In this document: piece after piece, positions 2,206-45,821 of the stretch | Layout: every line of letters begins with the position of its first letter | Position numbering within the stretch: position 1 is the stretch's first letter | Origin: an uncultured Caldisericales bacterium | Lineage (GTDB): Bacteria; Caldisericota; Caldisericia; JAAYUI01 | Direction of reading: 5' to 3' | DNA length: 64,000 bases | Assembly: GCA_964639885.1 (NCBI GenBank) | Contig: CAZXEH010000001.1 | Location: 36,893 to 100,892 of the forward strand | The notes under the pieces: model-generated | Told to the model about the DNA's origin: nothing | Databases searched by the model: none | Seen by the model: the letters and a program-made list of their open reading frames with translations, nothing else | Translations under genes and position numbers: made by a program

Positions 2206-3137
2206 ACATAATTACTGGCGATCCCTTCTCAGTTGAGGTTCGTTGCGCAAAAGGCTGTTACATGCTCGGATACATGGACGGGGTTCATATCGGACACAGA
2301 AAGCTTGCCGAGACCGTCATAAATAAATCAGTGTCAACCAACTCTTTTCCAGCCGTATTCACTTTCAACGGCCTGCTCTACACCAAATCGATCCCAAGTT
2401 TCAGGGGGCTTTTGACCCCACACGAAGAAAAGCTGGAACTGTTGGAGGATTTGGGTATTGAAGAGATGATTCTGGCGGATTTTACCGAGAAACTCAGAGA
2501 CATGCCTGCACAGGATTTTGTCAGGTGTATACTCAGGGACAGGCTTGACGCCGGATTTGTAGCCTGTGGACCAGGTTTTTCCTTTGGCAAGGGCGGGCTT
2601 GGGAAATCGGATGACCTGATAAAATTTTGCAGTGAATTCGGCATCGAGGCTGAAGTGATAGGTTCGGTTCAGATGGATGGCAAACCGGTCTCATCAACCC
2701 GCATCAGAACTATGTTGCTTGAAGGTCAGGTTGAAGATGCCTCAAGAATGCTTGGCAGAAACTACACAATCAGGGGAAGCGTCATCCACGGTCATGGAAT
2801 AGGTAAAAATCTGGGGATACCGACGGCAAACATTGAGGTTCCTGACAAAATGAAGCTTGTGCCTGGTGATGGCGTGTACGCCTGCATCGCTCGTTTTGAT
2901 GGACGATCACTTCCGTCAGCGGTGAGCATTGGCATGAGGCCGACCTTTGATGACACGCAAAGGTCAATTGAGGCACATTTGCTTGACTTCGACGGGATAA
3001 TATATGATCATCAGATGGAACTGGAATTCGTTTCGTATCTGCGTGGGCAGAAGGTTTTTCACACTCATGAAGAGCTTGTTGCGCAGGTGCGGCAAAACAT
3101 AGAACAAACAAGATCGATTGTTGGAGGTTTGCTATGA
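2203..3137 (+). CDS. ribF: bifunctional riboflavin kinase / FMN adenylyltransferase
   Basis: RibF N-terminal FAD-synthetase motif (GYMDGVHIGHRKL) and C-terminal riboflavin-kinase region (GHGIGKNLGIPTANI...EAHLLDF). Start taken at ATG 2203, overlapping the truB stop. Confidence 0.85.
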
Positions 3138-15324: not shown

Positions 15325-16403
15325 AACACCTCGAGCAGTTCAAAGACGACATCTACACCTGTGTGCGAACCCGTTGCGGTTTCTGCATTCAGGAATGCCC
15401 GACATACCGCGATGGTCTGATCGAAAGCTACGCCTCAAGAGGCAAGATGCTCCAGGCAAAAGGTCTCCTCGAAGGCGAGATGAAACTGACCCAGGAACTT
15501 GCCGATTCAGTATTTTTCTGCACCATGTGTGGTTACTGCGAAGCCAAATGCGCCCTCCAGAACCTTGAAATCTTCAAGGCTCTCAGGGAAGAGCTTGTTG
15601 AAGCCGGATACACCAAGAAAGAAAACGACTCTGTCGCCAAAAACATCATCGAGAAGGGCGACCCACTCGGTTCCGGCAAACAATTCAAGGTTGACGGCGA
15701 TGTTCAGCTTTATCTCGGCTGCGCCTATAGGGACAGAGCCACCGATGCCGAAAGGATCGTGAAGGTTCTTGGCAAACTCGGCATCAAAGTCAGGATCACC
15801 GAAGAAGTCTGCTGTGCAAACGCTCTTTACAACACCGGCTACAAAAAGGAATATGAGCAGGCCAAGGCAAAATTCATGGAAGTCTACAAACCCTACCTTA
15901 ATGACACCATCATCACGGTTTGCCCGAGCTGCACCCTCACACTCAAGGAATATTACGGACTGCCAAAGGTTGTTCACGCTTCAGAGCTGATCCTCCAGAA
16001 GCTCCCAACCATGAAAATCAAGAAATCAACAGCAAAAGCCACCTACCACGACCCATGCCATCTTGGCAGGGGACTGAAGAACTTCGACGCACCTAGAGAA
16101 ATAATCAGGATGCTTGGCTATGATCTCGCCGAGATGAGGCTGAACAACAATTTCTCGCAGTGTTGCGGTGGCGGTGGCGGTCTCCAGGCTCACGCCGGTG
16201 ACACAGTAAAAGAAACAGCAAAACGCCGTGTCAGGGAGGCCATTGACACAGGCGCCGAATACATTTCAACCATCTGTCCGACGTGCGAGTCAACACTTTT
16301 CAGAGCAACAATGGCTGTCTCCCGTGAAGAAAAGGAAAAGGGCACAGGAAAGCGCATCAAGAGCAAAGACATCTGGCAGATGCTGGAGGAGGCTTTGGAA
16401 TGA
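15321..16403 (+). CDS. (Fe-S)-binding protein with two CCG cysteine-rich domains (GlcF / heterodisulfide-reductase-D-like)
   Basis: 4Fe-4S cysteine clusters (CVRTRCGFCIQECP; CTMCGYCEAKC) followed by two CCG-type motifs (VCCANALYNTGY; CCGGGGG). Translationally coupled to the upstream oxidase. Confidence 0.8.
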   Translation: MKHLEQFKDDIYTCVRTRCGFCIQECPTYRDGLIESYASRGKMLQAKGLLEGEMKLTQELADSVFFCTMCGYCEAKCALQNLEIFKALREELVEAGYTKKENDSVAKNIIEKGDPLGSGKQFKVDGDVQLYLGCAYRDRATDAERIVKVLGKLGIKVRITEEVCCANALYNTGYKKEYEQAKAKFMEVYKPYLNDTIITVCPSCTLTLKEYYGLPKVVHASELILQKLPTMKIKKSTAKATYHDPCHLGRGLKNFDAPREIIRMLGYDLAEMRLNNNFSQCCGGGGGLQAHAGDTVKETAKRRVREAIDTGAEYISTICPTCESTLFRATMAVSREEKEKGTGKRIKSKDIWQMLEEALE

Positions 16404-18602: not shown

Positions 18603-18632
18603 ATGGCGCCTCACAAAGAGGCGCCATTTTTT
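18603..18632. terminator. bidirectional Rho-independent terminator between convergent genes
   Basis: GGCGCCTC-acaaa-GAGGCGCC hairpin followed by a T-run (ATTTTTTAT). An A-run lies on the opposite side. Confidence 0.6.
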
Positions 18633-19602
18633 ATGGGTAGATTAGTTGAGTTATTGTCACTGATCTAGTTGCAGAATCGTACGAAACCCAACATTCAAAT
18701 ATTTCACCAATGAACCTGAATGGCACCATCAGTGAACCGTTGATTATTACTGGAGGTGTGCCGTTTATTGTTACTTCCTTGCCATTAAAAGTTCCTTTTG
18801 GATTGCCAACATAAATTACCAATAAATTACCTCCCAATTCGACTGTAATCATTTTTGATTCAGCGCTATATGTTACGTTGCCACCAAGGAAAGTATTACA
18901 GAAAAATCTGAGAGGCACCATTGTTGATGCTCTGTAGATTGTTAGTTCAACCGGCATTGTGAATTCAACTCCGTCGATGGTCGCTATTTTATTGTAGGTT
19001 TGCATTTTGCACGTTTTTTCGTGGATGTTTGTGATATTTAGGATGAATGTTGAGATATTACCATATTTGTCGGTAATTTTTATTATGTGGTCAGTTTTCG
19101 AGGGTGACTTTTCAATAGTGAGTTTGACCGTGAACATTATACCATCTTGTTCAGCTTTATTGCCATCTCCTTCGATGATGCATTCTGGTTCTGTGAATCC
19201 CACCTGTTGATATTCGTTGACGTCTTTTGTCTTAATATTAATTTGATTACCTGTCATTAGTTTACTTGAAATGCAAAAATGTACTTTTGGTGCTGTCGTC
19301 CTCATCTGCACGAGGATGCCTTTTGTCGTGGACTGGCCATCTTTTGTGGCTTTGAAGTGGAAGACGTTGTCACCCTCCTTAATTTCGAGGTCAATTTTAA
19401 AAACGCCGTCATCGCCAATTGTGGCGACTTTCTTGCCCCTCATGCTGACCTCGGTTCCTGGCGCAGCTTTACCGATGAGCGTAAAAGGCGATTTGTTCGT
19501 GTAATGAACAAGACCGATCTCAAATTCAACATTCTCTGCTTTTGCCCCAATCACAGGCATTATCAACACCGCAATAATCATTGTCAGAATCATTTTTTTC
19601 AT
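18631..19602 (-). CDS. secreted protein with C-terminal 'copper amine oxidase N-terminal-like' stalk domain
   Basis: Signal peptide (MKKMILTMIIAVLIMPVIGAKA). C-terminal module ...STMVPLRFF...GG.V.Y...VPFRFIGE...W..D...R.V.I, as seen in Cu_amine_oxidN1-type stalk domains. Confidence 0.55.
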   Translation of the reverse strand: MKKMILTMIIAVLIMPVIGAKAENVEFEIGLVHYTNKSPFTLIGKAAPGTEVSMRGKKVATIGDDGVFKIDLEIKEGDNVFHFKATKDGQSTTKGILVQMRTTAPKVHFCISSKLMTGNQINIKTKDVNEYQQVGFTEPECIIEGDGNKAEQDGIMFTVKLTIEKSPSKTDHIIKITDKYGNISTFILNITNIHEKTCKMQTYNKIATIDGVEFTMPVELTIYRASTMVPLRFFCNTFLGGNVTYSAESKMITVELGGNLLVIYVGNPKGTFNGKEVTINGTPPVIINGSLMVPFRFIGEIFECWVSYDSATRSVTITQLIYP

Positions 19603-19612
19603 TTTTGCCTCC

Positions 19613-20589
19613 TTATGGTTGGATGTCTTTTGTTAGCATTATCAACTCGGATACTTTGTCATACTCATAGCTAAACCCGAACAATTCAAAGAAAGATTTG
19701 ACTGGAACGTGAGTTGTGCCATTTTCGATGAATGGCGCTTCATCAATGTCGACAGTGGATCCATCGAAATTGGCAATCTTTTCGTTGGCTCTGCACAATA
19801 ATTTGTTGTCGCCAGCGGTTATGGCGGTGATTCTTGCGCTTGCATCCCACGAAAGCTGACCATTGATTACTTCGCAGAAAAGTCTGATGTTGAGCATGAA
19901 TGTTCCGTTTCTTGTCTTTATTTTATTTATTGAAATTTGTCTGTTGTCAATGGTCATGTTTCCTGAATTAATACCGATGTAGACTCTTTTTGTGTGAATG
20001 TTGTTTATGCCAAGGTTTACGTTGGTTTTGTTACCATATCTATCAACAACATTTATCATGTGAGAATTTTTTGATGGAGCCTCTTTTAATTCTATCTGCA
20101 GCCTGATCCTGTTTCCGTCCACTTCCTGCGTTGCGTTGTCAACGATTATTTTGCACCCAGGGTCAGTGAAGCAAAGAATATCGATTTTTTTGGCATCTTT
20201 GGCATCAAGGTTTATTTTCTGATCAGTGAATGTCTTGCCTCCGATGAACAATGTCACAACCGGTGGTGTCGAATCCATTTCAACATAAATGTCTTTTGTG
20301 ACCTTGGCTCCGTCTTCTGGGAGACCACCTGAAAAAAGTTGCCACCTTCGTTTACATCGAGATAAATCTTGAATGAACCATTATCATCTGCGTATGTGAA
20401 TAGGTTTTGCCCTTCAATTCCAACCTGACTCCCCGGTTCAGCTTTCCCTTCCAGAATAAATGGAGATTTATTGACATACCAAACCTGTTTTACCTCCAGC
20501 GCCAGAGATTGCGCCATACCGCTTGAGAGCGGAACAAACGTTGCAGCAATCAAACCCATCACCACCAATAACATGCCCAGCCGTTTCAT
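19613..20589 (-). pseudogene. frameshifted paralogue of 18631..19602 (secreted stalk-domain protein), disrupted at an A/T homopolymer
   Basis: Two consecutive ORFs (20254..20589 and 19613..20278) align collinearly to the upstream paralogue (VKQVWYVNKSPFILEGKAEPGSQV vs IGLVHYTNKSPFTLIGKAAPGTEV). The reading frame changes at the A6/T6 run near 20335–20340. Adding one base there restores ...EGGNFFSGGLPEDGAKVTKDIYVEMDSTPPVV. Confidence 0.6.
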
Positions 20590-21731: not shown

Positions 21732-22745
21732 TCATTCGGAAGCTGTTTCCGGGAAGTAGCAAGTGACTGTCTTTGTTGCTGCTTCGTAGTCGACCCTTGC
21801 ACCAAGGAGTTCTGAGATCATCCTTACAGGAACGACTGTACTACCGTTGTAGTTGGTGGCCGCTGTCTTGACTGTGACCTTGTCTTTGAACATCTTGCCG
21901 TCGCCGGTCTTGAGCTCGAGAGTGACTGTTGTTGAGTTGAGCGGGAGGCTCATCTTGAAGTAGACGTTCTTGAACTCGAAGGTGTATGAGGCTGTTTTAG
22001 TTGCTGCGTCCCAGCCAACCTTGCAGTAGTCCTTGCCAATGACCTTTTCGCCCATGTCGCGCATCGGGAGATAGGTTGAGCCCTTGATTACAACCGGAGG
22101 AACCTTGAGGGTGTCGGTTGAGTCTGTCATCGGGTATCTCTTTGCCTTGTCCTTGTTTCTGATGTCCCAGGTAAGGCACTTTGTGAGCTTGAGTTCCTTG
22201 TTGTCTATCTGCATCTTTGCAACTGTGAACGGGATGAGCATGCAGCCAAAGTACATTGAGTCGATGGTTCCCTTGTCGCCAACCGGCCAGACATCGACAC
22301 GGCCTGTGCCCATCTGTCCGAACTTGCCGACTGAAGCCACACCGTGCGGAGAGAAGAGGGCGGTCATTGCTTCTTCAAATCCCGGTTCCTTTTCCTTGCC
22401 TGTTGTTCCGGTGACACCTGCGTTGTAGCATGCATCAGAGAAGCAGTATTCGACAATTTCCCAGTCGCCTGACTTTGTGTCTGCGTCATAAGGTGTTGTT
22501 GGGCCGAGGTTGTTCATCATGCCCTGGAACTTCTGTGTTCTGTCTGTGACGTTTTTCATCGAGTAGTGGAAGTGGTTGTTTGACTGGTACGGATAAACTG
22601 TCGGGTTTGGCGCAAACAGTGCCGAGAACTTGAACAGGAATGTCCTGTTGAGGTGCTTGAAAAAGCCCGGGCCTGCGTTGGCAGAGGTGCTGAAACCTGC
22701 AACTGCGATTGCCGCAATGGCAACGATTGCGATAATTTTCTTCAT
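21732..22745 (-). CDS. secreted protein with C-terminal copper-amine-oxidase-N-terminal-like stalk domain
   Basis: Signal peptide (MKKIIAIVAIAAIAVAGFSTSANA). C-terminal module ...STYLPMRDMGEKV...VGWDAATKT...STVVPVRMISELLGARVDYEAATKTVT. Confidence 0.55.
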   Translation of the reverse strand: MKKIIAIVAIAAIAVAGFSTSANAGPGFFKHLNRTFLFKFSALFAPNPTVYPYQSNNHFHYSMKNVTDRTQKFQGMMNNLGPTTPYDADTKSGDWEIVEYCFSDACYNAGVTGTTGKEKEPGFEEAMTALFSPHGVASVGKFGQMGTGRVDVWPVGDKGTIDSMYFGCMLIPFTVAKMQIDNKELKLTKCLTWDIRNKDKAKRYPMTDSTDTLKVPPVVIKGSTYLPMRDMGEKVIGKDYCKVGWDAATKTASYTFEFKNVYFKMSLPLNSTTVTLELKTGDGKMFKDKVTVKTAATNYNGSTVVPVRMISELLGARVDYEAATKTVTCYFPETASE

Positions 22746-23862: not shown

Positions 23863-24228
23863 CTACTTAACTTCGATGGTGCGGATGAACTTGCGAGACC
23901 TGGTGGTGCTGTCCTTGATCAGGATCGTCACGTCGAACTTTCCGGCTTCAAAGGTTTTCTCGATTGGGCCAAGCGTGAGTGACCGCGACTCGAGGGACGC
24001 GCTGGAGCCGTCGCCCCAGTCAACCGAGAGCTTGAACGGCGGGAAAGCCTGGTCGAGCGTGGCAGTCAGGCTGACCGGGACGCTGACGCTGGCGATGCCG
24101 TCGTTAACGCCCTCAAAATCCAGCTGGGCGGTGATGGGGAAGATGACCGGCACGCCGATGAAAGCCCCCGCACCGGAAGGCATGGCGACGATGGCCAGGA
24201 GCGCAAGCGCAACAGAGAGTTTCTTCAT
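23863..24228 (-). CDS. small secreted protein with PKD-like (WGDGS) domain
   Basis: Signal peptide (MKKLSVALALLAIVAMPSGAGA). Motif LSVDWGDGSSASLESRSL aligns with the C-terminus of the giant protein at 36331..40950 (LKVNWGDGSPEELYTMRD). GGAGG RBS before MKKL. Confidence 0.5.
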   Translation of the reverse strand: MKKLSVALALLAIVAMPSGAGAFIGVPVIFPITAQLDFEGVNDGIASVSVPVSLTATLDQAFPPFKLSVDWGDGSSASLESRSLTLGPIEKTFEAGKFDVTILIKDSTTRSRKFIRTIEVK

Positions 24229-24246
24229 GCCTCCGGTGTAGCGCAT

Positions 24247-25941
24247 TTAAAGTTTGGATGCAAGACTGTTATCTATGCCTAATTTACAAACAATATCTTT
24301 TAAATATTTTTCAAGATGAATTTTATCATCATCAGAAAAATGCCAAGATTCGGTTTCTATTTCATCTATACGATTATAAACATTAAACTCATCCTTTTTT
24401 ACTAAACCAAAAATAGAGCAAAAATCACCATACAAAATGGAAACAGTTTCTTCGAATCGATTTTCAAGATAGTCTTTCAAAGATTTTATTTCTCGTAAGG
24501 TATCCGTATCACCTTTGTCGTCATCTAATGCGATGATGTAAGGAATTCCAAATTTATCTAATATTTTTGCATGATTCAATAATTTAGAATTCCCCCTTGA
24601 ATTATAGATACTGATATCATTACTATTTAGATTGTGACCTTGTTTCATCAATAACCAAGGTATGGCAATTCTTTCATTGTAGCCTTCGACTAATAATACT
24701 TTATCGGCAAAGAAAAATTCACGTAGTTCAGGTTCAAGCCTTAATGATGTAAAGAATTCGAAGAAATATTTATCAGAACCCAACACGTCAATTCCCTTTG
24801 ATTTTAGATAGTTTATTGAAAAATCGTATAACCCACTTCCATTATTGCTAACTTTTGTTAACCCGTTTATTTTTGATATGATTCTGAGTGAATGAATGTT
24901 CATAGGATCGATGAAATAAGATGAATGGGTGGAGAGGACTATTTTAAAATTTTTATTGCCCACGATCTCAAATAACTTATCTGAAACAGCTTTTTGTTGA
25001 TGTGGATGCATAAATATTTCTGGCTCTTCAATTAATAATATAAGATTGCTTTTGTTATCCTGTATCTTTTTTGAAGCCAATTGAGTAAATAACAACATTA
25101 TCAGCAATCTTTGTAAACCATGACCTAAATTTGTCCACTCTACAGATTCGATCCATTTATCACTTATTAATAATTGCCTGTCAGTAACCAGTTTTTTTGC
25201 ATCAAAATCAGTTGGAAGATACTCAATATTATTGATATCAGGTATAATTTTTTTCATTTCAGATTTAAGAGAGTTAATTATTTCCAAGGCATCTGTTTCT
25301 GGGATTTCTCGAATTTTCTTCAGCGCTTCGCAAATAATGACATTAATTTTTTCAGTATATGTTTTGCTGAATTTGTCATTTAAAAGTTTTCCGAGTATTG
25401 TTGTATTTGCAGTATTTGTTGCTTCTTTTAATATTGGAATTGCAGATAAATATAGAATATCAAATGGAGGTTTTTTATCGACCCAATCAAACTTACCATT
25501 AACTTCCGCTGTCGACTGGTAGATTTCTTTTTCACCTCCAGAATCAACCCAAATGTTTACCGTTGATCGTTTACTATTATTTCCAATATACTTACTAACA
25601 TCATTTTTAAGTGTTAATTTCTCTGATTCTCCTAAATTGGAAAAAGATTCTAATTCTAATAATTTTGCTTTGTAATCATCCTCTAATCTTTTATTGCATA
25701 TATCTGTTATTTCAAAAATACCTTTGTTAAATGCTTTATTTAGTGCAGTCATTATATTGCTTTTACCAGAATTATTTTTCCCTATCAATATCGTTTGATT
25801 ACTAAGGAATATTTCTAATTTATCTATTGTTCTAAAATTGTTTATTTCAATATGAATGTTATCCTCGGGATTGTCCATACAGCCTCCACAATGTTTATAA
25901 ACAAAATCCCCGAAGATTTCAATACCCTCGGGGATTGGCAA
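24247..25941 (-). CDS. OLD-family nuclease: N-terminal ABC-type ATPase + C-terminal TOPRIM domain (Gabija GajA / class-1 OLD-like)
   Basis: Walker A (ILIGKNNSGKSNIMTAL). Walker B/D-loop (LILLIEEPEIFMHPHQQ). C-terminal Toprim with a conserved Glu (LLVEGYNERIAIPWLL) and DxD (IIALDDDKGDTD). The gene is conspicuously AT-rich (about 25–30 %GC by eye) against GC-rich flanks. An alternative start is at the Met at 25878. Confidence 0.75.
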   Translation of the reverse strand: MPIPEGIEIFGDFVYKHCGGCMDNPEDNIHIEINNFRTIDKLEIFLSNQTILIGKNNSGKSNIMTALNKAFNKGIFEITDICNKRLEDDYKAKLLELESFSNLGESEKLTLKNDVSKYIGNNSKRSTVNIWVDSGGEKEIYQSTAEVNGKFDWVDKKPPFDILYLSAIPILKEATNTANTTILGKLLNDKFSKTYTEKINVIICEALKKIREIPETDALEIINSLKSEMKKIIPDINNIEYLPTDFDAKKLVTDRQLLISDKWIESVEWTNLGHGLQRLLIMLLFTQLASKKIQDNKSNLILLIEEPEIFMHPHQQKAVSDKLFEIVGNKNFKIVLSTHSSYFIDPMNIHSLRIISKINGLTKVSNNGSGLYDFSINYLKSKGIDVLGSDKYFFEFFTSLRLEPELREFFFADKVLLVEGYNERIAIPWLLMKQGHNLNSNDISIYNSRGNSKLLNHAKILDKFGIPYIIALDDDKGDTDTLREIKSLKDYLENRFEETVSILYGDFCSIFGLVKKDEFNVYNRIDEIETESWHFSDDDKIHLEKYLKDIVCKLGIDNSLASKL

Positions 25942-30037: not shown

Positions 30038-30517
30038 TTAGAATTTTATTGCCGGCTTGAGCTGTTTGTAAATCTCTTCCAGACTTGTCGGGTGAATTTT
30101 TACTTCACCTATTACCGGCATGAAGTTTGCATCACCGTCCCATCTTGGAACGATATGAACGTGGATATGATCGGCAATTCCTGCGCCAGCCACTTTTCCA
30201 AGGTTCATTCCAATGTTGAAGCCATCCGGTTCGAGAGTCGCCGAAATGACCTTGGTCATCTCTCTGGCAACCTTGAATATTTCGCAGGTCTCTTCGTCTG
30301 TGAGATCTGCAATCGAGCTGACGTGGCGGTTTGGAATGACCATGCAGTGGCCGGTTGTGTATGGGTACAAATTGAGGATGACAAAGCAATTTTTGCCTCT
30401 CCAGAGCACAAAATTCCTCTCATCCTGATTTTCCGAAACTGCCTTGCAAAACACGCATTTGTCAGGCTTTGGCGATTTGATGAAAGCCATGCGCCAGGGT
30501 GTGAAGATGCTCTTCAC
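30038..30517 (-). CDS. HIT family hydrolase
   Basis: Histidine-triad motif (HIHVHIVPR). C-x-x-C near the N-terminus (CVFCK). Confidence 0.8.
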   Translation of the reverse strand: MKSIFTPWRMAFIKSPKPDKCVFCKAVSENQDERNFVLWRGKNCFVILNLYPYTTGHCMVIPNRHVSSIADLTDEETCEIFKVAREMTKVISATLEPDGFNIGMNLGKVAGAGIADHIHVHIVPRWDGDANFMPVIGEVKIHPTSLEEIYKQLKPAIKF

Positions 30518-31035
30518 GACCCCTTTCCTTCAATGGTTGAGATGTCCTTCATGTGAATGTGGGTGGCAAGGCTGATTGATTTTGCGATTGTCAGAGCGTT
30601 TTCAACGGCTGTTTTTCTGCCGCAGAGAACAAACAGGGACTTCATGCCGTTTCCACCTGCAAGCTGAACTTCGCTGGCTTCAACTCCCTGAACTTCCATC
30701 GCTGCATTGAGTGCTGCAATTGTCGCCTGGATGCCGATGGTTTCAAAGATGCCTGTGTATTCACATCTCGTTGACATCCTCTGGCTTGTTAGCGCTCCTA
30801 TTGTTTTGGAATTGATGCCTCTGATATGGGCGATGTTTGAAACATCTTTTGTCGGATATTCGGCGAGTTTCTCGAACAGCCTCAAAAGTTGGTCTTCCTC
30901 ACCGAAAGCGACAATCTTGGGCGGAAGCAGCGAACGGTCAATTGTCGGAATGACGGTGAGCCCACTTCTTGCTATGGTCTCCCTGACCTTTTGTCTGTCC
31001 GCCCGTGAGTTTGTTTGAATGATAGCTATGTCCAT
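30514..31035 (-). CDS. BMC (bacterial microcompartment shell) domain protein with N-terminal extension
   Basis: C-terminal half fits the BMC pattern (GIFETIGIQATIAALNAAMEVQGVEASEVQLAGGNGMKSLFVLCGRKTAVENALTIA). The roughly 80-aa N-terminal extension is of unknown function. Confidence 0.4.
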   Translation of the reverse strand: MDIAIIQTNSRADRQKVRETIARSGLTVIPTIDRSLLPPKIVAFGEEDQLLRLFEKLAEYPTKDVSNIAHIRGINSKTIGALTSQRMSTRCEYTGIFETIGIQATIAALNAAMEVQGVEASEVQLAGGNGMKSLFVLCGRKTAVENALTIAKSISLATHIHMKDISTIEGKGS

Positions 31036-32604: not shown

Positions 32605-33246
32605 CTACCTCACTATCCTGACTTTATCGCCTGAGTTCAGCCAGGCGCCGTTTGCTTCGTCTGTGTCAACATGGAAATCTAGCGCAAAGGCAGCGTCGAC
32701 TCTGATCACTACATCTCCAACAATGGTTTTTCTTGGAGTGTTGGCGACCACCCAAACCTCTTCCTTGTCCTTGATGCCGAATTTCTCGGCTTCCGAGGTA
32801 TGCATGTGGATGTGTCTGGCTGGAACAATAACACCTTTGTCAATTGTTATTTCACCGTTAGGGCCAACAATCTTGAGTCCCGGTGTGCCTTCGATGTCGC
32901 CTGAAGTTCTGAGAACAGGATCTACTCCCAGAAGGAAGGCGTCAGTTTTTGAAATTTCGACCTGCGTTGCTTTTCTTGCCGGGCCAAGGATTCTGACGTT
33001 CTTGATGGTGTTCTTCGGGCCAACAATGTCAACCTTCTCATTTGAAGCGTACTGTCCCGGCTGTGTCAGATCCTTGTAAACGGTGAGGTCGTGCCCGAAA
33101 AGTATCTGTACGTGTTCGGCTGTGAGGTGTGCGTGTCTTGCCGAGACGCCAACATTGATGTCAAGAGCGTTCTTATCGGCAAGCGTTTTTTCTACAAGTT
33201 CATTTATATTCATATCTTCAAAACCCCTTAGGTATTTTTTCCACAA
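32605..33246 (-). CDS. pduL: phosphate propanoyltransferase PduL-like (phosphotransacylase)
   Basis: Two PduL repeat motifs (GVSARHAHL...; VPARHIHMH). 213 aa. Confidence 0.7.
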   Translation of the reverse strand: MWKKYLRGFEDMNINELVEKTLADKNALDINVGVSARHAHLTAEHVQILFGHDLTVYKDLTQPGQYASNEKVDIVGPKNTIKNVRILGPARKATQVEISKTDAFLLGVDPVLRTSGDIEGTPGLKIVGPNGEITIDKGVIVPARHIHMHTSEAEKFGIKDKEEVWVVANTPRKTIVGDVVIRVDAAFALDFHVDTDEANGAWLNSGDKVRIVR

Positions 33247-35803: not shown

Positions 35804-35983
35804 TCAGGAGCAGGTGATTGCTGAAACCGGGCAATTGTCCATTGCTTCCTGGCAGCACGGAACGTTGCAGTCCACTGCCTTTGCTATTGCGATATTGTCA
35901 TCGCCCATTTCAAACACGTCTGGACACAGCGAGGCGCAGACTCCACAACCAATACAGGTGTCGGCATCAACTTTGGCCTTCAT
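35804..35983 (-). CDS. 4Fe-4S ferredoxin
   Basis: 59 aa. CIGCGVCASLCP cluster motif plus further Cys residues. GGAGG RBS before MKAKVDADTC. Confidence 0.75.
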   Translation of the reverse strand: MKAKVDADTCIGCGVCASLCPDVFEMGDDNIAIAKAVDCNVPCCQEAMDNCPVSAITCS

Positions 35984-36218
35984 TTTTCCTCCTTGGAGAT
36001 AATGACATGCGTAGTATATTAAGGGCATTGGTGATGTCAACCCATTCAAGATTTGGTTTTGGTGGAGCCATATAAAATTATGAATCGGTCATACTAATCT
36101 GTGTTCACGCATATCATACATATTTACCTATCTGTGCAATTTTTTCTCGTTTTTTAGCATTTTATGCATTGTCCACCGACACCCATATGTTAAATTTCGG
36201 TTGTCGCTTGGGGCGCTC

Positions 36219-36253
36219 TTGACTTCATGCCGTACTTAGCTATTATTCTATTT
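36219..36253 (+). promoter_or_regulatory. putative sigma70-type promoter within a 330-bp AT-rich leader
   Basis: TTGACT, a 16-nt spacer, then TATTAT. Followed by an AAAGGAGAAG RBS before ATG 36331. Confidence 0.35.
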
Positions 36254-36330
36254 GCCGATATGTTTTTCGGTCTTGTCTTTATTTAGGTCTTGTGTAATCA
36301 AATTTTGTATTTATTTAAAGGAGAAGAAAT

Positions 36331-39300
36331 ATGAAGAAGATAGCATTCCTCATTGCTATTGTGCTTTGCATGCAGATGTTTGCAATTCCTGCATTCGCAA
36401 CCAGCAACTCTACAGTCACGCCAGATGATGATTACAAGCCTGCATCCATTATCCTCGATGTCACACAGTGGGCTTCAAGAACAACATCATACTGGACAGA
36501 CCCGCAGTTCCTTACCGAGAGCAGACAGGTCGTCGGCTCAATGATAAGAAACATGGGTTTTGACAGACTTGCCAAAGAAAACCCGGGAAGCGTGATGCTG
36601 CCTGTCGTTTACCATTCAATCAATGGCAAAGTCCAGGTTTCTCCTCCACCGAAAAATATCTCTCTTTCATCAAAAGGTCTCAATCCATTCTCAACAAAAT
36701 CGGTTACAGCGCTCCCATCAGGAACGATCACCTGGGATTTCGTTGGTTCCTGTACCTCTGGCGCACCACTGTCCGGACCACTCTTTGACTGCGCAACCGA
36801 AATGCCTTACATCAATGACTTCATCACGCCGACCGGCTCTGGTTTCTGGACATCAGGCATGAACAACTGCATCCGCGATGTATTTGGTTCTCCGTTCTAC
36901 ACCATCAAGGTTCAGTTTGTCCGTGATGATGCCCTTCCAACCGGTGTTGCCGGCCAGTATTGGTCATCTGGTGGAACGGGTATTGGAAAGATTCACATTC
37001 CAACAGCCATCGCCGCACCACCGAACAATGCACTTTGGGGCGCAACGGTAGGCGAATACATGCTCAACACTCTCACCCACGAAATGATCCACGCCTACTA
37101 CGACGACATGAACCTTTACTATCACGCATGGTCAGAAGGTCTCACTGAATGCCAGGCAGTCCTTGCCAGAAAGCTCTTCTGCCAGAGAAACTCATATAAT
37201 CCGTCAACATTCGTCACTCTCACCTGGGGAATCCCGCCATATGTTGCACAGTACGAACTGTTCAACCAGGAAGGTCTTCCAGGCGCACAGGGTCTCTTCT
37301 ACACAAACGTTTCAGGTGAAAGAATCATCTCTATGATGACTCCACGCTATGGAATGGCTGCAGCCTACTGGTGGAAGATTTACAGGGAAACAATTCCTGT
37401 AAACAGTGGCACAATCGACACTGGTGTTCCGGCAACATATGGTAACCAGGCATTCTTCAGCAATTTCAACGGAATGTTGTTCGACACCTGGTCAACATAC
37501 GCCGGTTCTTTCTCTGCCTACATGAGGGACTGGAACCTTCACAACACACTCGTTGCCAATACTCTTGTCAACGACAAAGGCAACAGTAATGTCGAAAGCA
37601 AGGATTTTGCATCAACATGGTTCGGCCTTCAGGAAATTATCCAGATCAGAACAAAAACCATCCTTCACCTCTACTTCCCGTACGGCCCAATAACACCGAT
37701 GGGCGGACTTACATCTCCAGCCGGAACACAGAACCAGATTTGCGACAATGGAAGCTATTTTGGCGGATTCTCTGGCCCAGGGTATCTTGTTGGTGGCGGA
37801 AACGCCCCATGCCTTTACACAACCCAGCCTGGTGGATTTGAAGTCCCTGCAAATGGTACAGCAACAATTACAGTCACCTCGATGCATGCTTCAGGTCTTA
37901 CAGTTGGTCAGAACGTAACAAACCGCGTGGGTTACAGGCCAGCCTATTCAGGTGCGGCTCCAGGAGCATGGGTTACAATCCCTGCGCTCACATTCTCGTC
38001 AGGTGCCGATGGCAGATATCCGCAGTACAACACAGCCAGCTTTGTCAACCCAGCCGGTTTCTACTTCGGTTGGACCGGTGGACCGGGTGGCGCTCTCCCG
38101 ATCGGTGCATACATGCTCCAAGTCGATGCAGTCTCAGGTGCAAGCACGGCTCAGCAGTTCTGCTATTTCGCCTCTGGATACCAGAACCAGTATTACAACT
38201 CAGGAGTCATCATTGGTTCGGGAACACAGACAGGCGATGTCATGGCTGTCAATCTCAATGGCAGCGCATGGGTGAACCTTCCAGGCGTAACACCGCCATG
38301 GGGCGCACCACCAAGAGCAGCATTCCAGGGCAACTACAACGGTGCCTCATATGCAAACGGTGGCATGATCGGTTACAGATTCAGGGCAAATGGTGCAGCC
38401 TACTACGATTATGACTATGCCAACGGTGGCATGTACTATTATGTAAAGAACTTCGTAACCTCATTCAACAGACTCACGCACACCCTCCCGCCTTATGTTG
38501 GCAGATACGGATTTGCTGTAATCTCCCAGTCAACCGACTTCCTCGGAGCCGCAGACCCAACTGGTGACAATCACGCAGCATTGACGTATTATGAAAAATT
38601 CTGCTCGGAGTCCTCACAGCCATCAACTGCAGGTCTCTCAAGGCTTGTCTACAGACCGGACTACATTCCTGATGGCTCAAGAGTGATTGCCTGCTTCCTC
38701 TACGCCAATACTGTCGGACGCAATAACGGTGGTGTTTACGAAGAGAGACCATTGAGAGTCAGAACCGGGACAGATGCAAATTGGCACGATGTTTATGGTC
38801 TCTTCCTCGGCCGCGACGATGAACCTCTCAGAAACTCTACAGGGTCATGTGCTTGCGGTGGATGGGCTCCATACCAGTCAACATTCAGATTCGACCTCAC
38901 ACCGTACATCACAGGATGCTACGACACAATCAGAATCAACAACCTGTACCAGGCGTATGAGCCAAACGGCCAGCAGTTGTTCTACGGCTTCGAGATGGTT
39001 CTTGTCTATGAGAATCCAACACTCGAATACTCACAGATTATGATCGCTGACGGCGCACTCAGAATCTGTGCAAACGAAAGAACTCAGGATGCAACAACAT
39101 TCACAGGCTTCAGAACTCCTCCAACGCCAGCAACCTGGCCAAGAGACAAATCAAGAGCCTCAGCATACATGGCAATCCTTGGCAACTCAGCCGACAATGG
39201 CTCGGGTGGAGCTGGCAGGGTCAACAATGAATGGGACTTCTGGGCAGTAGGTTCCGACAAGTACACAATGGACAGAATCTGGATCAACCCGGAACCAGCC

Positions 39301-40950
39301 GATCCCGTTTCGTCACAATCTGGTGCTTGGTATTCGCCAGGTGATATTAATGGATTATTACCAACATGGACTGGTCCGACAACTGTTACGAATTATAACT
39401 GCGCAGCAAGACCAACCGATTTCCCTAACCCCTATTTCTATTGGTCACGACCAATAGATAACAACGTTGCCAATTTCACAAATTATTGGGGTGGTTCACA
39501 ATCCTGCAAACAATTCAGCTCTGCATGGTTCTGGAACAATAATTTTACGACCGTTGCCAACAAGACTGCGATCGTCTGGGAAAACGGTTCATGGTGGGAT
39601 GTTGTAAACTCTGACTATTCAGGAGCCGTTCACAACACCAACAGGACATACCTTGCAGGTGATGACACCTCTATTACTGTCAGACCGTATATGGTCTGTT
39701 CAAATGCAACAGCAGGTGCAGCAGGATACGCTGATGGTTTTGGCCCATGTGTCGCGACCTGGCGAGGCAATCAAACGAATAATAACTGTCAGGCACCAGT
39801 CGGTACAGATTACTGGGCAAGATCAGATGAACGTGGACACCTTCAGGCAATCATCCTTCAGGTTCCAATCGTCCCGTCACTTGAGATCACAAAGACAGGC
39901 GTGCCAGACCCAGTTCTTCCTGGCAACCTCCTCACCTACACAATCACCGTCAGAAACTCAACCCCATACAGAAGCAATGGCGTTCACGTAATCGAAACCT
40001 ATCCGGCAGGAGTCCAGTTCTACGATGCAAACCCACCGGCAGACATCAACAACAATGAGTGGACAACATCAATCGGTACAAACGGCGATGGCTCACTCAA
40101 TCCGAACGAAGAGGCAATCATAGTTGTCAGACTCAAAGTCGGCAAACTCGCCAAAGGTACAAAGCTTACAAACCTTGTAATGGCCTACTCAGAAACCTCA
40201 CCTGCACCGGTTTACGCAGAAGAGACCAACACAGTCCTTGGCGAACCAAAACTGACAATCACAAAATACACAAAGCGTTTCATGGCTCTCCAGGGCGAAA
40301 AGGTCAAATTCTACATCACAGTCAAAAACGTTGGCGATCGTGAAGCAACTGGCGTCTCAATCTTTGACCTTCTTCCACGTGAGTTCATGTATGACTCATC
40401 ACTTCCATCAGGATCAGTCGGCCTCCAGAAGATTTACTGGGCAGTCGGCACACTCAATCCAACAGAAAGCTACACAATCGAACTCATCCTCAAGGTCAGG
40501 GATGACATCACGATCAACCCGGGCACAACCCTCACAAACACAGCCTTTGCGACAAGCCTTGAAGACCTCTTTGTCCAAGACACAGCAGTTCTCATGGTCA
40601 GAGCCGGTGGCAAGGAACCGATCGTCTGCGCAAAACCAGACGTCAGCCTCATTGTCGAAGGCCTCAAGCCAGTCCAGGAAAAAGACGGACTCTACTGGAT
40701 GTTCAAGTCAGGCCAGGAATACAAGATCAGCGTAAAGGTCTATGACAACGGCGGATGCAGCCCATACGAACTCAAAGTCAACTGGGGCGACGGCTCACCA
40801 GAAGAACTCTACACAATGAGAGACGGCGATTCGGTAATGCTCAAGGATCTCAAACCGCACTCATTCACATCAGGCGAAAAGATTTCGATCAGCCTCAAGA
40901 ACCGATACGACGGCCAGTACGAATCAATCTTCAAGTACAAAATCCAGTAA
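36331..40950 (+). CDS. giant secreted surface protein (1539 aa): HExxH metalloprotease-like motif, two DUF11 repeats, C-terminal PKD-like domain
   Basis: Signal peptide (MKKIAFLIAIVLCMQMFAIPAFA). HEMIH at TLTHEMIHAYYDD. DUF11-like repeats (LEITKTGVPDPVLPGNLLTYTITVRNS...; LTITKYTKRFMALQGEKVKFYITVKNVGD...). C-terminal VNWGDGS. Gly/Tyr/Asn/Trp-rich central region. Confidence 0.7.
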   Translation: MKKIAFLIAIVLCMQMFAIPAFATSNSTVTPDDDYKPASIILDVTQWASRTTSYWTDPQFLTESRQVVGSMIRNMGFDRLAKENPGSVMLPVVYHSINGKVQVSPPPKNISLSSKGLNPFSTKSVTALPSGTITWDFVGSCTSGAPLSGPLFDCATEMPYINDFITPTGSGFWTSGMNNCIRDVFGSPFYTIKVQFVRDDALPTGVAGQYWSSGGTGIGKIHIPTAIAAPPNNALWGATVGEYMLNTLTHEMIHAYYDDMNLYYHAWSEGLTECQAVLARKLFCQRNSYNPSTFVTLTWGIPPYVAQYELFNQEGLPGAQGLFYTNVSGERIISMMTPRYGMAAAYWWKIYRETIPVNSGTIDTGVPATYGNQAFFSNFNGMLFDTWSTYAGSFSAYMRDWNLHNTLVANTLVNDKGNSNVESKDFASTWFGLQEIIQIRTKTILHLYFPYGPITPMGGLTSPAGTQNQICDNGSYFGGFSGPGYLVGGGNAPCLYTTQPGGFEVPANGTATITVTSMHASGLTVGQNVTNRVGYRPAYSGAAPGAWVTIPALTFSSGADGRYPQYNTASFVNPAGFYFGWTGGPGGALPIGAYMLQVDAVSGASTAQQFCYFASGYQNQYYNSGVIIGSGTQTGDVMAVNLNGSAWVNLPGVTPPWGAPPRAAFQGNYNGASYANGGMIGYRFRANGAAYYDYDYANGGMYYYVKNFVTSFNRLTHTLPPYVGRYGFAVISQSTDFLGAADPTGDNHAALTYYEKFCSESSQPSTAGLSRLVYRPDYIPDGSRVIACFLYANTVGRNNGGVYEERPLRVRTGTDANWHDVYGLFLGRDDEPLRNSTGSCACGGWAPYQSTFRFDLTPYITGCYDTIRINNLYQAYEPNGQQLFYGFEMVLVYENPTLEYSQIMIADGALRICANERTQDATTFTGFRTPPTPATWPRDKSRASAYMAILGNSADNGSGGAGRVNNEWDFWAVGSDKYTMDRIWINPEPADPVSSQSGAWYSPGDINGLLPTWTGPTTVTNYNCAARPTDFPNPYFYWSRPIDNNVANFTNYWGGSQSCKQFSSAWFWNNNFTTVANKTAIVWENGSWWDVVNSDYSGAVHNTNRTYLAGDDTSITVRPYMVCSNATAGAAGYADGFGPCVATWRGNQTNNNCQAPVGTDYWARSDERGHLQAIILQVPIVPSLEITKTGVPDPVLPGNLLTYTITVRNSTPYRSNGVHVIETYPAGVQFYDANPPADINNNEWTTSIGTNGDGSLNPNEEAIIVVRLKVGKLAKGTKLTNLVMAYSETSPAPVYAEETNTVLGEPKLTITKYTKRFMALQGEKVKFYITVKNVGDREATGVSIFDLLPREFMYDSSLPSGSVGLQKIYWAVGTLNPTESYTIELILKVRDDITINPGTTLTNTAFATSLEDLFVQDTAVLMVRAGGKEPIVCAKPDVSLIVEGLKPVQEKDGLYWMFKSGQEYKISVKVYDNGGCSPYELKVNWGDGSPEELYTMRDGDSVMLKDLKPHSFTSGEKISISLKNRYDGQYESIFKYKIQ

Positions 40951-40965
40951 GGTTCAACCATCACA

Positions 40966-40998
40966 AAAGACCCCCGTTAACCGGGGGTCTTTTTCTTT
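40966..40998 (+). terminator. Rho-independent terminator
   Basis: GACCCCCG-gttaa-CGGGGGTC hairpin followed by TTTTTCTTTTT. Confidence 0.7.
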
Positions 40999-41025
40999 TT
41001 AACCGATATATGTTAGCATTCAGCC

Positions 41026-42609
41026 ATGAGGACGGTTGGGATTTGGGCAATTCTGTTTTGCCTTCTGATTTCGGGTTCCGGTGTAGCAGGGGAGCTTTGC
41101 AATTGGCCAATGTTTCGGGGTGACAAGGCAAGGTCTGGCGTTTGCCAGTCCGAGTGCATGCCCAAAACCAACGATTTGTTGTGGACTTGTCAAACTCAGG
41201 GAGCCGTCGAGAGTTCGCCTGCAATTGTCGATGGAAAAGCCTACGTTGGTTCATTTGATGGCCATCTTTACTGCATTAATCTGGAAACAGGGAAACCTGA
41301 CTGGAAGTATCAGGCAACCGGTGGCGTGAAATCCTCTCCTTGTGTAGATGCTGAGAAGGTCTATTTCGGATCAACGAACCAAACAAACGGCAAGGGCGGT
41401 TTTTACTGTCTGAACACGAAAAGTGGGGACTTGATCTGGAAGCTGGATTTGCCATTAAAAGTTGACTCGTCGCCTCTGGTTGTTGGTGACAAAGTCGTTT
41501 TTGGCTGTGGTGATGACAACCTTTACGGCGCAAACAAAGAGAATGGCGATATTGTCTGGACTTGTCAGACGGAAGGTGCGATTGATTCAAGTCCTTCGTA
41601 TGATGGTGGCAGGATTTATGTTGGAAGCACCGATAACAATCTCTACTGTGTTGACGAAAATGATGGCTCAGTGCTCTGGAGCTTCAAAACTTTGGATGAC
41701 ATCGTTTCAACGCCTGCCATAATCAACGATTTGGTGTGTTTCGGGTCGATGGATAAAAGGGTTTATGCACTCGACAAGGTTTCAGGAAAGCTCAGATGGA
41801 AGTATGAAACCAAAGGATTTGTTGAATCCTCACCGGCGTTTGTCAACGGCAACATCGTGATTGGGTGTGACGACTACAGCCTTTATTGCCTGGATTCCGC
41901 CACTGGCAAACTCGAGTGGAGATTTTCGACCACAGAAGACAAGATAGTTTCATCCCCTACCGTTGTTGGTGATTATATACTTGTAGGAACCTGAGACTCT
42001 AACCTCTACTGCCTGGATGGCGGTACCGGCAAAATGCTTTGGAAGCACCACACAAACGGAGTGGTCAGGTCGTCGCCTGCTGTTGGCAATGGCAGGATTG
42101 TGTTTGGGTCGTACGATAATGTTGTTTATTGTTTAGGCGAGAAATCGATCGAAAATCCTACACCGCCCACGCCGGAACCGCCAAAACCCGAGCCTCCAAA
42201 ACCGCCGGAGAAAAAGACTATGAAGCTTGAATTCTGGCTGGATCGGAAAACATACACAGTTGACGGTGTGACCAAAGAGATGTCGGTCAAACCTTTTGTT
42301 TTCAAGGGTTCAACGATGCTGCCGGCAAGATATCTGGTCGAAGGCATTGGCGGAACCGCAACCTGGCTACAAGAGCAGAAAATGGTTGAGTGCAGGACTG
42401 ACAGGCATACGCTCAGGATGTGGGTTGGCAAAGGCACGGCTGAGCTTGATGGTGTTGAGGTAGCAATTGGCAAGGACGCTTCTGTCAATCCTCAGATTGT
42501 TGACGGTCGCGTGTTTGTTCCGTTCCGTTTCCTCGGCGAGTCGCTTGGATGTGTTGTCGAGTGGGATGCTGGTGAGAAAAGGATGAGTCTTGTTTATCAA
42601 TCGGAATAA
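41026..42609 (+). pseudogene. PQQ-repeat beta-propeller (BamB-like) + Pro-rich linker + copper-amine-oxidase-N-like stalk domain, interrupted by an in-frame TGA at 41992–41994
   Basis: Seven or more PQQ-type repeats (G.[FT]D..LYC[LIV][DN]..[TS]G...W). ORFs 41026..41994 and 42034..42609 are in the same frame. The TGA falls inside the repeat VGT*DSNLYCLD. PTPPTPEPPKPEPPKPP linker. C-terminal MLPARYLVEGIGG...VPFRFLGESLGCVVEWDAGEKRMSL module. Confidence 0.6.
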
Positions 42610-43770: not shown

Positions 43771-44631
43771 CTATTTTGCTTCCCTATAATCGTAGAACCC
43801 GACACCGTTCTTCCTGCCAAGCAGTCCTGCAGCCACCATCTTGCGAAGGAGAGGGCACGGTCTGTACTTGGAATCGCCGAGGCCTTCATGGAGCACTTCC
43901 ATGATGGCAAGGCAGGTGTCAAGTCCGATCAGGTCGGCGAGGGCGAGTGGGCCCATCGGGTGGTTCATGCCAAGCTTCATGACTGTGTCAATGTTTTCCT
44001 TGGTCGCAACACCTTCCATGAGGCAATAAACGGCTTCGTTGATCATCGGCATGAGGATTCGGTTGCTGACAAAACCCGGGAAATCGTTTGCAACTGCCGG
44101 CGTCTTTCCGAGTTTTTTCGAAAGATCGTCGATGATTGTGTAAACTTCGTCGGTTGTCAGCATTCCACGGATGATTTCGACAAGCTGCATCAATGGAACC
44201 GGGTTCATGAAGTGCATTCCGATGAAGCGTTCCGGTTTTTTGTACTTTGCCGCAAGCTCAGTGATCGAGATGGTTGAGGTGTTTGAGGCGAGAATGGCTG
44301 TTTCGGCCAGTATTCCGTTGAGCTTTTCGTAGATTGCGTACTTGAGCTGCCTGTTCTCGGAAACGGCTTCAATGACCAGTTCACAGCCGGCAAGGTCGGA
44401 AAGGCTCTCTGAAATCTTGATGTTTCCAAGGGTCGAGTCGACTTCAGCCTGGGTGATCTTTTCCTTTGAAAGCAGCCTTTCAAGGTTCTTTTTGATGATG
44501 CCTTTTGCTTTTTCTGCCAACGTCAGGTTTGCTTCACAAATTGTCACATCATAACCCTTGTTTGCAAAAACGTGGGCGATTCCGTTGCCCATGACTCCGC
44601 CGCCGATGACTCCAACTTTCTTAATCTCCAT
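43771..44631 (-). CDS. hbd: 3-hydroxybutyryl-CoA dehydrogenase
   Basis: 3HCDH N-terminal GxGxxG ([14 protein letters not shown]) and C-terminal domain. 286 aa. Confidence 0.9.
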
Positions 44632-44645
44632 TTGCCTCTCCTTTA

Positions 44646-45821
44646 TCAGACGAGTTCAACAGCCATTGCAACCGCGCCACCGCCACCGAGGCAAAGCGTC
44701 ACGAGTCCGCGTTTTCCACCTGTGCGCTTGAGGTTGCCGATGAGTGTGGCAAGGCATCTTGCGCCTGATGCACCGATTGGGTGTCCGAGAGCAATCGCTC
44801 CGCCTGCCATGTTGACCTTGTTCCAGTCCCAGCCGAGGTGCTTGCCGTTGACAAACGCCTGGACCGCGAAGGCTTCGTTGGCTTCAATTGCGTCAAAGTC
44901 TGAAATCTTCCAGCCGTTTTTGTCCATGAGCTTTCTGACGGCGTGAATCGGCGCCCAGAAGAGCTTCTTTGGTTCAACGTGTGCGGATGCGAAATCGAGC
45001 ACGGCTGCAACCGGCTTGTAGTTCTTTGCTGCCTTTTCGGAAGCCACAACCACTGCCGAAGCGCCATCGGAGAGTCCAGGTGCGTTTCCGGCTGTCACGA
45101 TTCCGTCCTTGTCGAAGGCCGGTCTGAGCTTTGTAAGCGATTCCATTGTTGTCGGTCTCGGAGTTTCGTCCTTGTCAAAGATGATTGGGTCTTTCTTTGG
45201 AACCTCGATCTTTATTGGCACTGTTTCGTCAACGAACCAGCCGTTTGCAAGAGCCTTTGCAGCCTTGTCCTGTGAGTTGAAAGCGAGGTTGTCGACATCT
45301 TCACGAGTGACTCCCTCTTCCTTGCCGGTGTATTCGGCGAGATTGCCCATGTGTGAGTTGTTGAATGCGCACCAGAGGCCATCCTTTACCACGCCGTCTA
45401 TGAGGGCTCCGTCGCCATAACGATAGCCTTTGTGCCTTGCTGCATCGAGAAGGTACGGTCCATTGGTCATCGATTCCATGCCACCGGCCACTACGATGTC
45501 AGCATCTCCAAGCTGTGTTGCCTGTGTGCCAAGCATGACGGCTTTGAGTCCTGAGCCGCAGACTTTGTTGATCGTGAGAGCGTTTGTTTCAGGAGCGACA
45601 CCTGCCTTGATGAGAGCCTGTCTTGCCGGGTTCTGGCCACAGCCTGCGCCGACAACAAGACCCATAACAACTTCATCAACCTTGTCAAAACCAACATTTG
45701 CCTTTTCGAGTGCACCTTTTATGGCCACTGCACCAAGATCCATCGCTGTAAACGGCTGGAGTGTTCCCAAAAATTTTCCGATCGGCGTTCTGACGGCCGA
45801 CAAAATGTAACTTCTTGCCAT
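44646..45821 (-). CDS. acetyl-CoA C-acetyltransferase (thiolase II)
   Basis: Thiolase active-site regions ([12 protein letters not shown]; [13 protein letters not shown]; [13 protein letters not shown]). GGAGG RBS. Confidence 0.9.

Follow-up and report, generated by a model that had tools for sequence, protein, structure and literature searches.

A probable secreted zinc metallopeptidase of a rare gluzincin-like family encoded by an uncultured Caldisericales bacterium

Does the lone HExxH motif of a very large secreted protein mark a metallopeptidase, or does it belong to a structural component of the cell surface? This question is raised by a gene at 36331..40950 (forward strand) in a 64,000-nucleotide stretch of DNA, hereafter the window, from an uncultured Caldisericales bacterium (GenBank assembly GCA_964639885.1, contig CAZXEH010000001.1, positions 36,893 to 100,892). 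Its product of 1539 amino acids (aa) is probably a zinc metallopeptidase exported by the Sec pathway to the extracellular space or the cell surface and, with only slightly less assurance, its most likely function is that of a secreted or surface-displayed zinc endopeptidase from a rare new gluzincin family. The giant protein is composed of the following parts:

36331..40950, plus strand, coding sequence of the secreted multidomain protein (1539 aa), backed by orthologues, synteny and dN/dS (ratio of nonsynonymous to synonymous substitution rates)
36331..36399, plus strand, predicted signal peptide (aa 1–23; MKK, hydrophobic core, cleavage between AFA and TS; read by eye)
36400..36792, plus strand, N-terminal region (aa 24–154), Ser/Thr/Pro-rich and the least conserved part
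36793..37680, plus strand, gluzincin-like catalytic domain (aa ~155–450), predicted, its family not represented in the curated libraries that were searched
37078..37092, plus strand, HEMIH (aa 250–254), the sole HExxH of the protein
37135..37137, plus strand, E269, putative third zinc ligand inside the motif AWSEGLTE
37711..39885, plus strand, middle region (aa 461–1185, 725 residues), G/N/Y/W-rich and K/E-poor, with conserved Cys
39886..40230, plus strand, CLIPPER/DUF11 domain 1, predicted isopeptide triad K1188, E1222, N1281
40246..40590, plus strand, CLIPPER/DUF11 domain 2, predicted isopeptide triad K1312, D1346, N1403
40606..40947, plus strand, C-terminal module (~114 aa, aa 1426–1539), GGCSPY ... 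VNWGDGS ... KNRYDGQY

When 1.84 billion representative proteins were scanned exhaustively with HMMER, 14 relatives of the giant protein came up, including three of the full-length type (P0014, P0015 and P0016; 38–46 % identity). Seven of the 14 (P0019, P0020 and P0022–P0026; 584–1420 aa) match only aa ~155–460, with 30–37 % identity; in P0026 the shared region is accompanied by CARDB and FlgD_ig domains and by a CHU_C signal of the type IX secretion system (T9SS). Since these seven proteins carry aa ~155–460 in other secreted architectures, the segment represents an autonomous domain, and the predicted protease domain is, judged from its sequences, a separate, mobile and rare family. Searching again for homologues with the domain profile brought up P0022 alone.

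In an alignment of 12 sequences of the domain (A6; 29–79 % identity to the window protein), only 13 columns are invariant (H250, E251, H254, E269, G270, G300, Y308, N312, Y340, K349, E422, W430 and Q434), and all of them remain invariant in relatives at 29–45 % identity; H250, E251 and H254 are likewise invariant in eight full-length homologues. The family signature reads [TAGSV]HE[MILV][IV]H, then EG[LMFI] 14 residues on, and this spacing (x14) is found in 12 of the 12 members. An earlier interpretation of the DNA, made from the letters alone (the sequence-only reading), had claimed a single HEMIH zincin-type motif near residue 250; this motif occupies aa 250–254 and is invariant, together with the downstream Glu, in distant relatives.

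The proposition that HExxH is a chance motif lacking a metalloprotease fold could draw on the failure of any curated peptidase model to match and on an uninformative first structure model. It is confronted with the invariance of HExxH and the downstream Glu across the family at 29–45 % identity and with the outcome of shuffling the giant protein, which is His-poor (15 His): any HExxH appeared in 0.4 % of the shuffles, and the extended motif HExxH-x(8-30)-W-x(1,2)-EG[LFIMV][AT], defined post hoc with the sequence already seen, in none of 20,000 (analytic estimate ~7e-7). A chance origin of HExxH is excluded for practical purposes, and the proposition as a whole retains a very small probability.

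The fold predicted for the domain points in the same direction as the motif. An AlphaFold2 (AF2) model computed with A6 (predicted local distance difference test, pLDDT, 75.9; predicted template modelling score, pTM, 0.81) displays two short helices, three strands, the long HExxH helix, a second long helix from E269-G270 and a helical subdomain. In this model, in which the ligand geometry is presumed, E269-G270 open helix 117–137 directly after the HExxH helix 90–111. The predicted fold resembles the catalytic domains of M1, M61, M30, M60 and thermolysin, with the following matches (protein, peptidase family, fold-match score):

Aminopeptidase N, M1, 14.4
Puromycin-sensitive aminopeptidase, M1, 13.5
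ERAP1, M1, 13.4
LTA4 hydrolase, M1, 12.5
Aminopeptidase N family protein 4fgm, no family given, 10.8
Lugdulysin, M30, 10.2
AM0627, M60, 10.1
Glycyl aminopeptidase 8j9d, M61, 9.8
P. pannorum extracellular metalloproteinase, M36, 9.2
Thermolysin, M4, 8.6
Collagenase, M9, 7.9

The check for a zincin fold that had been named along with the sequence-only reading thus came out positive at the level of the AF2 model, with a predicted thermolysin/M1-like catalytic fold. The domain combines a conserved HExxH, a Glu on the next helix and a thermolysin-like predicted fold, i.e., the features of gluzincins.

Several results weigh against an assignment as a surface metallopeptidase. (i) Searching five sub-segments against Pfam (E <= 10) yielded no peptidase family for the domain beyond motif-level matches of 15–20 residues to SprT/M76 (E 0.08–0.28), NCBIfam gave no peptidase match in the giant protein, and sequence and profile searches of the PDB (with the full protein, A2, the CLIPPER region and A7) returned nothing or chance matches to bL20m and SMC. 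(ii) Foldseek found no significant match in the PDB (best E 0.29); its list, though insignificant, is enriched in members of the same clan (ACE2, DPP3, IRAP and LTA4H). (iii) The AF2 model rests on 12 sequences and contains three loops with pLDDT < 50, and an earlier model of aa 24–470, built with four close orthologues only, was uninformative (pLDDT 32). (iv) About half of the giant protein is without an assigned fold. (v) The Pfam scan detected none of the SLH, Cu_amine_oxidN1, sortase or T9SS signals in the giant protein; with no anchor domain found, "surface-attached" is a guess.

Many of the retrieved homologues are nameless, and the names of the others are without exception "hypothetical protein" or "uncharacterized repeat protein (TIGR01451 family)"; such names being uninformative, the domain was regarded as a new family belonging to a known clan. 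The candidate family is characterized by HExxH-x14-EG in the absence of GxMEN and comprises about a dozen clusters at 50 % identity among the 1.84 billion proteins. Chances appear even that aa ~155–450 establish a new family of peptidases in the gluzincin clan and that the full-length form of Caldisericia constitutes a new type of surface endopeptidase, with isopeptide-locked CLIPPER domains and ~725 residues of unseen fold(s).

Further members come from metagenomes. A first scan for relatives recovered no loci, and a second one with a DNA pattern derived from A6 recovered seven P0014-like loci (45–47 % identity) from activated-sludge and other assemblies, one of them on a 1.07-Mb contig on which the order CYTH gene, gene of a 232-aa protein, giant gene is retained. 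P0016 and P0028 (1615 and 1548 aa) are diverged full-length paralogues, each located on a 416,939-bp contig of the Joint Genome Institute (JGI); this is probably the same contig, in which case some genomes would harbour two copies.

After removal of the signal peptide, aa ~155–450 would fold as a thermolysin/M1-like gluzincin catalytic domain, in which zinc would be held by H250 and H254 of the active-site helix and by E269 of the next helix. E251 would act as general base, and stabilisation of the transition state, the task of the catalytic Tyr in M1 enzymes, may fall to an invariant Tyr, Y340 or Y308. Binding of substrates or surfaces is the probable role of the aromatic-rich middle region, the two Ig-like CLIPPER domains would make up a short stalk reinforced by isopeptide bonds, and the C-terminal ~114 residues are envisaged as a further β-sandwich, possibly for attachment. 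Physiologically, such an enzyme could serve protein foraging by a fermentative anaerobe or the processing of envelope proteins.

The gene itself is real and under purifying selection along its whole length. Its orthologues (76–91 % identity, equal length) are encoded in a metagenome-assembled genome (MAG) of Caldisericales, in a MAG of Caldisericia and on a JGI metagenome contig, in the common order of genes for polyprenyl synthase, CYTH protein, 232-aa protein, giant protein, PQQ-propeller, 3-hydroxyacyl-CoA dehydrogenase (3HCDH), thiolase and ccm. Relative to the 76 %-identical orthologue, dN/dS amounts to 0.12 overall, with the lowest values at aa 151–450 (0.084) and aa 651–1000 (0.072). 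The N-terminus (MKKIAFLIAIVLCMQMFAIPAFA followed by TS) shows, by eye, the n/h/AxA layout of a signal for signal peptidase I, and the AxA-type cleavage site is retained in homologues (AFA, FAA and VNA). The claimed signal peptide is thereby borne out; a lipoprotein was considered and rejected, as there is no lipobox. The following N-terminal region (aa 24–154), homologous only in full-length relatives and without family match in the Pfam segment search, could be a pro-region or N-domain.

The gene is flanked by the following signals:

35804..35984, minus strand, ferredoxin gene, divergent from the giant gene and sharing its leader
35985..36330, plus strand, AT-rich intergenic leader (346 bp), common to the divergent ferredoxin gene
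36219..36246, plus strand, promoter-like site TTGACT-16-TATTAT, consensus match only
36319..36323, plus strand, ribosome-binding site (RBS) AGGAG, 7 nt 5' of the ATG, consensus match only
40965..41003, plus strand, intrinsic-terminator-like hairpin and T-run, 12-bp stem with 7 G-C pairs; 40965..40993 in a narrower delimitation

The AT-rich leader (GC content 35.5 % vs 47.3 % of the window), strong RBS and clean terminator of the sequence-only reading are thus present; the high expression proposed there is a conjecture drawn from such consensus-type signals.

The middle region (aa 461–1185) is the most constrained part of the giant protein (see the dN/dS value for aa 651–1000) and every full-length homologue retains it; some of the short relatives, too, share its first ~90 residues. 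Its contents of G (11.7 %), N (7.9 %), Y (7.2 %) and W (2.9 %) exceed those of the window's other long open reading frames (ORFs; 7.7, 4.2, 3.1 and 1.1 %, respectively), which puts figures to the enrichment in Gly, Asn, Tyr and Trp asserted before, and K (0.8 %) and E (2.2 %) are low. Neither a Pfam family nor a PDB sequence matched aa 461–1185, and self-BLASTP and sliced hhalign revealed no internal repeats in aa 24–1185. From its composition, the region is suggested to be β-rich, possibly comprising carbohydrate- or surface-binding modules.

This composition, rich in Trp, Tyr, Asn and Gly and poor in charge as is common in carbohydrate-binding β-sandwiches, also underlies another proposal, namely that the protein acts as a hydrolase on glycoproteins or glycans, similar to the M60-like/ZmpB/IMPa glycopeptidases, with a gluzincin domain that would attack glycosylated targets exclusively, with the middle region providing carbohydrate-binding modules (CBMs) and with targets such as S-layer or matrix glycoproteins of neighbouring cells. 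The origin of homologous loci from activated-sludge or digester biofilm communities would suit such a role. Considering that no CBM or lectin family was found in any segment by Pfam and that glycan binding would be assigned by analogy, a glycopeptidase is rated unlikely, and the more general function of a zinc endopeptidase is preferred.

Downstream of the middle region, the two DUF11 domains claimed by the sequence-only reading are recognized well above cut-off by PF01345 (two stretches; E 4.3e-27, 95.2 bits vs 24.6) and by TIGR01451 of NCBIfam (49.6 bits vs 24), and with these domain matches from Pfam and NCBIfam its overall picture of a secreted multi-domain surface protein holds as well. 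DUF11 has been renamed CLIPPER, and the crystal structure displays an Ig fold resembling CnaA in which an isopeptide bond links Lys715 to Asn806; Asp748 is the presumed catalyst, and the bond confers resistance to heat and proteases (bioRxiv 10.1101/2025.04.25.650565). Both corresponding triads of the giant protein are invariant in eight homologues, with spacings of 34/93 (domain 1) and 34/91 (domain 2) vs 33/91 in 9IFR, the correspondence being set by position and spacing. The two domains, paired by hhalign at 94 % probability, are therefore predicted to be isopeptide (CLIPPER) domains; phmmer and hmmsearch matched no PDB chain to the CLIPPER region.

CLIPPER/DUF11 domains are stalk elements typical of fibrillar adhesins (bioRxiv 10.1101/2025.04.25.650565). 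One may thus ask whether the giant protein is rather a structural surface protein, i.e., a fibrillar adhesin or an S-layer-like coat, in which a non-catalytic zincin-like domain serves as binding module for adhesion or envelope architecture. The long AT-rich leader, the strong RBS and the clean terminator would agree with such a protein, as would the large aromatic-rich and Lys-poor region devoid of an enzymatic signature. Yet the invariance of metal-ligand and general-base residues down to 29 % identity is unexpected for a degenerate binding module; moreover, there are two stalk domains only, tandem repeats besides them are lacking, and neither an anchor nor an SLH, sortase or T9SS signal was found. 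A purely structural role is thus considered improbable, if slightly less so than that of a glycopeptidase, and catalysis by a zinc endopeptidase remains the favoured function.

The C-terminal module of the giant protein (aa 1426–1539) contains VNWGDGS at aa 1483–1489, with the sole WGDGS at aa 1485. The sequence-only reading had described it as PKD-like and had regarded a small ORF elsewhere in the window as a stand-alone copy resulting from domain shuffling:

23863..24246, minus strand, small secreted ORF of 121–127 aa (short form 23863..24228) with VDWGDGS, directly downstream of the OLD-family nuclease gene
24247..25941, minus strand, single-chain OLD-family nuclease gene (AAA_15/AAA_21 ATPase and OLD-like TOPRIM)

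Both motifs are present as described, and the small ORF, an orphan with three close homologues only, is the best-ranking of 846 window ORFs in a search with a hidden Markov model of the tail (E 0.036). The proposed alignment of the tail with the small ORF bears out a short similarity centred on WGDGS (28 aa at 36 % identity by BLASTP; 80 % hhalign probability over 29 columns with the close clade) and fails to extend it to the whole module. The hhalign probability drops to 43.5 % with eight tails and to 0.6 % with divergent tails alone. WGDGS is confined to tails of the close clade and missing in 39–44 %-identical homologues; the distant tails (P0014, P0015 and P0016) retain GGCSPY and KNRY.G.Y, with WGDGS replaced by TSPENDID or DFEDDGK. 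The small ORF was accordingly rejected as a shuffled copy of the tail, since no more than 27–29 residues around WGDGS are shared and the similarity weakens with divergent tails, and domain shuffling between the two is not demonstrated. The label PKD-like fared no better, as Pfam matched no PKD family to the tail; the small ORF reaches only E 0.12 with PKD_4 (12.9 bits vs a cut-off of 27). NF058578 (PamR) matches the tail with E 0.002 and the small ORF with E 1.3e-5, far below the cut-offs, and an Ig-like model also weakly matches the tail. By its sequence, the tail is probably a small β-sandwich, and tail and small ORF may both be small PKD/Ig-like sandwiches.

The OLD-family nuclease gene is a candidate anti-phage defence gene. 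In the JGI relative (L003) another gene occupies its position beside an aminotransferase gene, a comparison suggesting an insertion.

Just downstream of the giant gene lies a PQQ/BamB-like gene, and further secreted proteins and metabolic genes occur around the locus:

41026..42609, plus strand, PQQ/BamB-like gene for a secreted eight-bladed β-propeller with Pro/Glu-rich linker and Cu_amine_oxidN1
42034..42609, plus strand, Cu_amine_oxidN1 protein, inside 41026..42609
18631..19602, 19613..20278 and 21732..22745, minus strand, Cu_amine_oxidN1 proteins
30514..31035 and 32605..33246, minus strand, metabolic genes around the locus
3134..4681, plus strand, metabolic gene around the locus
43771..45821, minus strand, metabolic genes around the locus

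The reading frame of the PQQ-propeller is broken in blade 7 by one in-frame TGA (41992..41994; ILVGT*DSNLYCLDG), and no other intragenic-looking in-frame stops were observed in the window. Two other genomes have this TGA in the equivalent place (L003 14827..16422 and L001 4991..6577), and one of them encodes a giant-protein orthologue of only 76 % identity. Eight of the nine codons after the TGA are identical (baseline for conserved-residue codons, 49 %), and a small hairpin (CUGCC-UGGAU-GGCRG) starting 14–16 nt past the TGA persists despite a change from G-U to A-U, with folding z-scores no lower than –1.2 to –1.8; Rfam contains no family matching the RNA of this region. The TGA could specify selenocysteine or programmed read-through, and a shared pseudogene is an unlikely source. 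In a 79 % relative (L002 ~14711..15583) the PQQ-propeller gene is shortened and followed, near the contig end, by a zinc-ribbon sequence of transposase-like appearance (CPRCGNTKLYKVRRQKLKCSSC), which would make this a probable case of insertion sequence (IS) integration.

Cu_amine_oxidN1 forms the C-termini of at least four secreted window proteins (E 1e-16 to 1e-28) and may represent the envelope-attachment module of this lineage; the giant protein is without it. A fermentative metabolism, possibly one based on microcompartments, agrees with the genes around the locus, whose products are a BMC-domain shell protein, phosphate propanoyltransferase (PTAC), methylmalonyl-CoA mutase, 3-hydroxyacyl-CoA dehydrogenase and thiolase.

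Zinc proteases of the secreted, multidomain type are widespread, and the value of the present assignment therefore lies mainly in annotation and in the 725 residues without assignable fold: the novelty concerns family and architecture, and the mechanism would be unsurprising. A rare, unannotated branch would be added to one of the best-studied protease clans, and a large, strongly conserved secreted protein of the little-studied Caldisericia obtains its first functional handle. Alignment A6 and its invariant residues provide the basis for a profile model. In terms of architecture, a predicted protease domain is joined to CLIPPER isopeptide domains, which have been described in fibrillar adhesins (bioRxiv 10.1101/2025.04.25.650565).

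Among known systems, the closest parallels are found in M1 enzymes by fold-match score, and the comparison reveals likeness in layout along with differences in detail. The M1 active site is formed by HExxH-x18-E within WLNEGFA; HEMIH-x14-E within AWSEGLT of the giant protein follows the same logic, with HExxH on one helix and, on the following one, the putatively zinc-binding Glu as part of a motif of the W-x-x-EG type. An invariant Tyr is located ~70 residues past the Glu ligand, a distance resembling that of the catalytic Tyr in M1. Unlike M1, the Glu is positioned 14 instead of 18 residues past the second His, sequence identity amounts to 8–13 % only, the N-terminal β domain and C-terminal helical domain of M1 are lacking, and the domain forms part of a secreted protein of 1539 aa that also contains CLIPPER domains. 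Peptidase_M1 of Pfam did not match the isolated segments even at E <= 10, and phmmer and hmmsearch retrieved no M1 chain from the PDB. GxMEN (G.MEN) is absent from the giant protein, the strand preceding the active-site helix reading GKIHIPT, and relatives do not conserve GxMEN there. Membership in M1 was hence rejected (no profile match, no GxMEN, x14 instead of x18, flanking domains absent). Since GxMEN is the motif for binding of the amino-terminus, its lack would make an endopeptidase likelier than an aminopeptidase. From the other gluzincins, namely M61 glycyl aminopeptidase, M30 hyicolysin/lugdulysin, M60-like glycopeptidases, M36, M4 thermolysin and M9 collagenase, none of which is detectable by sequence, the protein differs in accessory domains and motif spacing.

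For the tail, the W-G-D-G-S turn after a β-strand is the hallmark loop of PKD domains and is shared with them, with all scores far below the curated cut-offs; the RbmA-like PamR of pilus systems in the candidate phyla radiation (CPR; NF058578) is weakly matched by both tail and small ORF. The CLIPPER domains agree with 9IFR (K715/D748/N806) in a triad of Lys, Asp or Glu, and Asn at near-identical spacing. In contrast to the CLIPPER stalks of fibrillar adhesins, they occur near the C-terminus in two copies only, not as a long tandem stalk, and are joined to a predicted protease domain.

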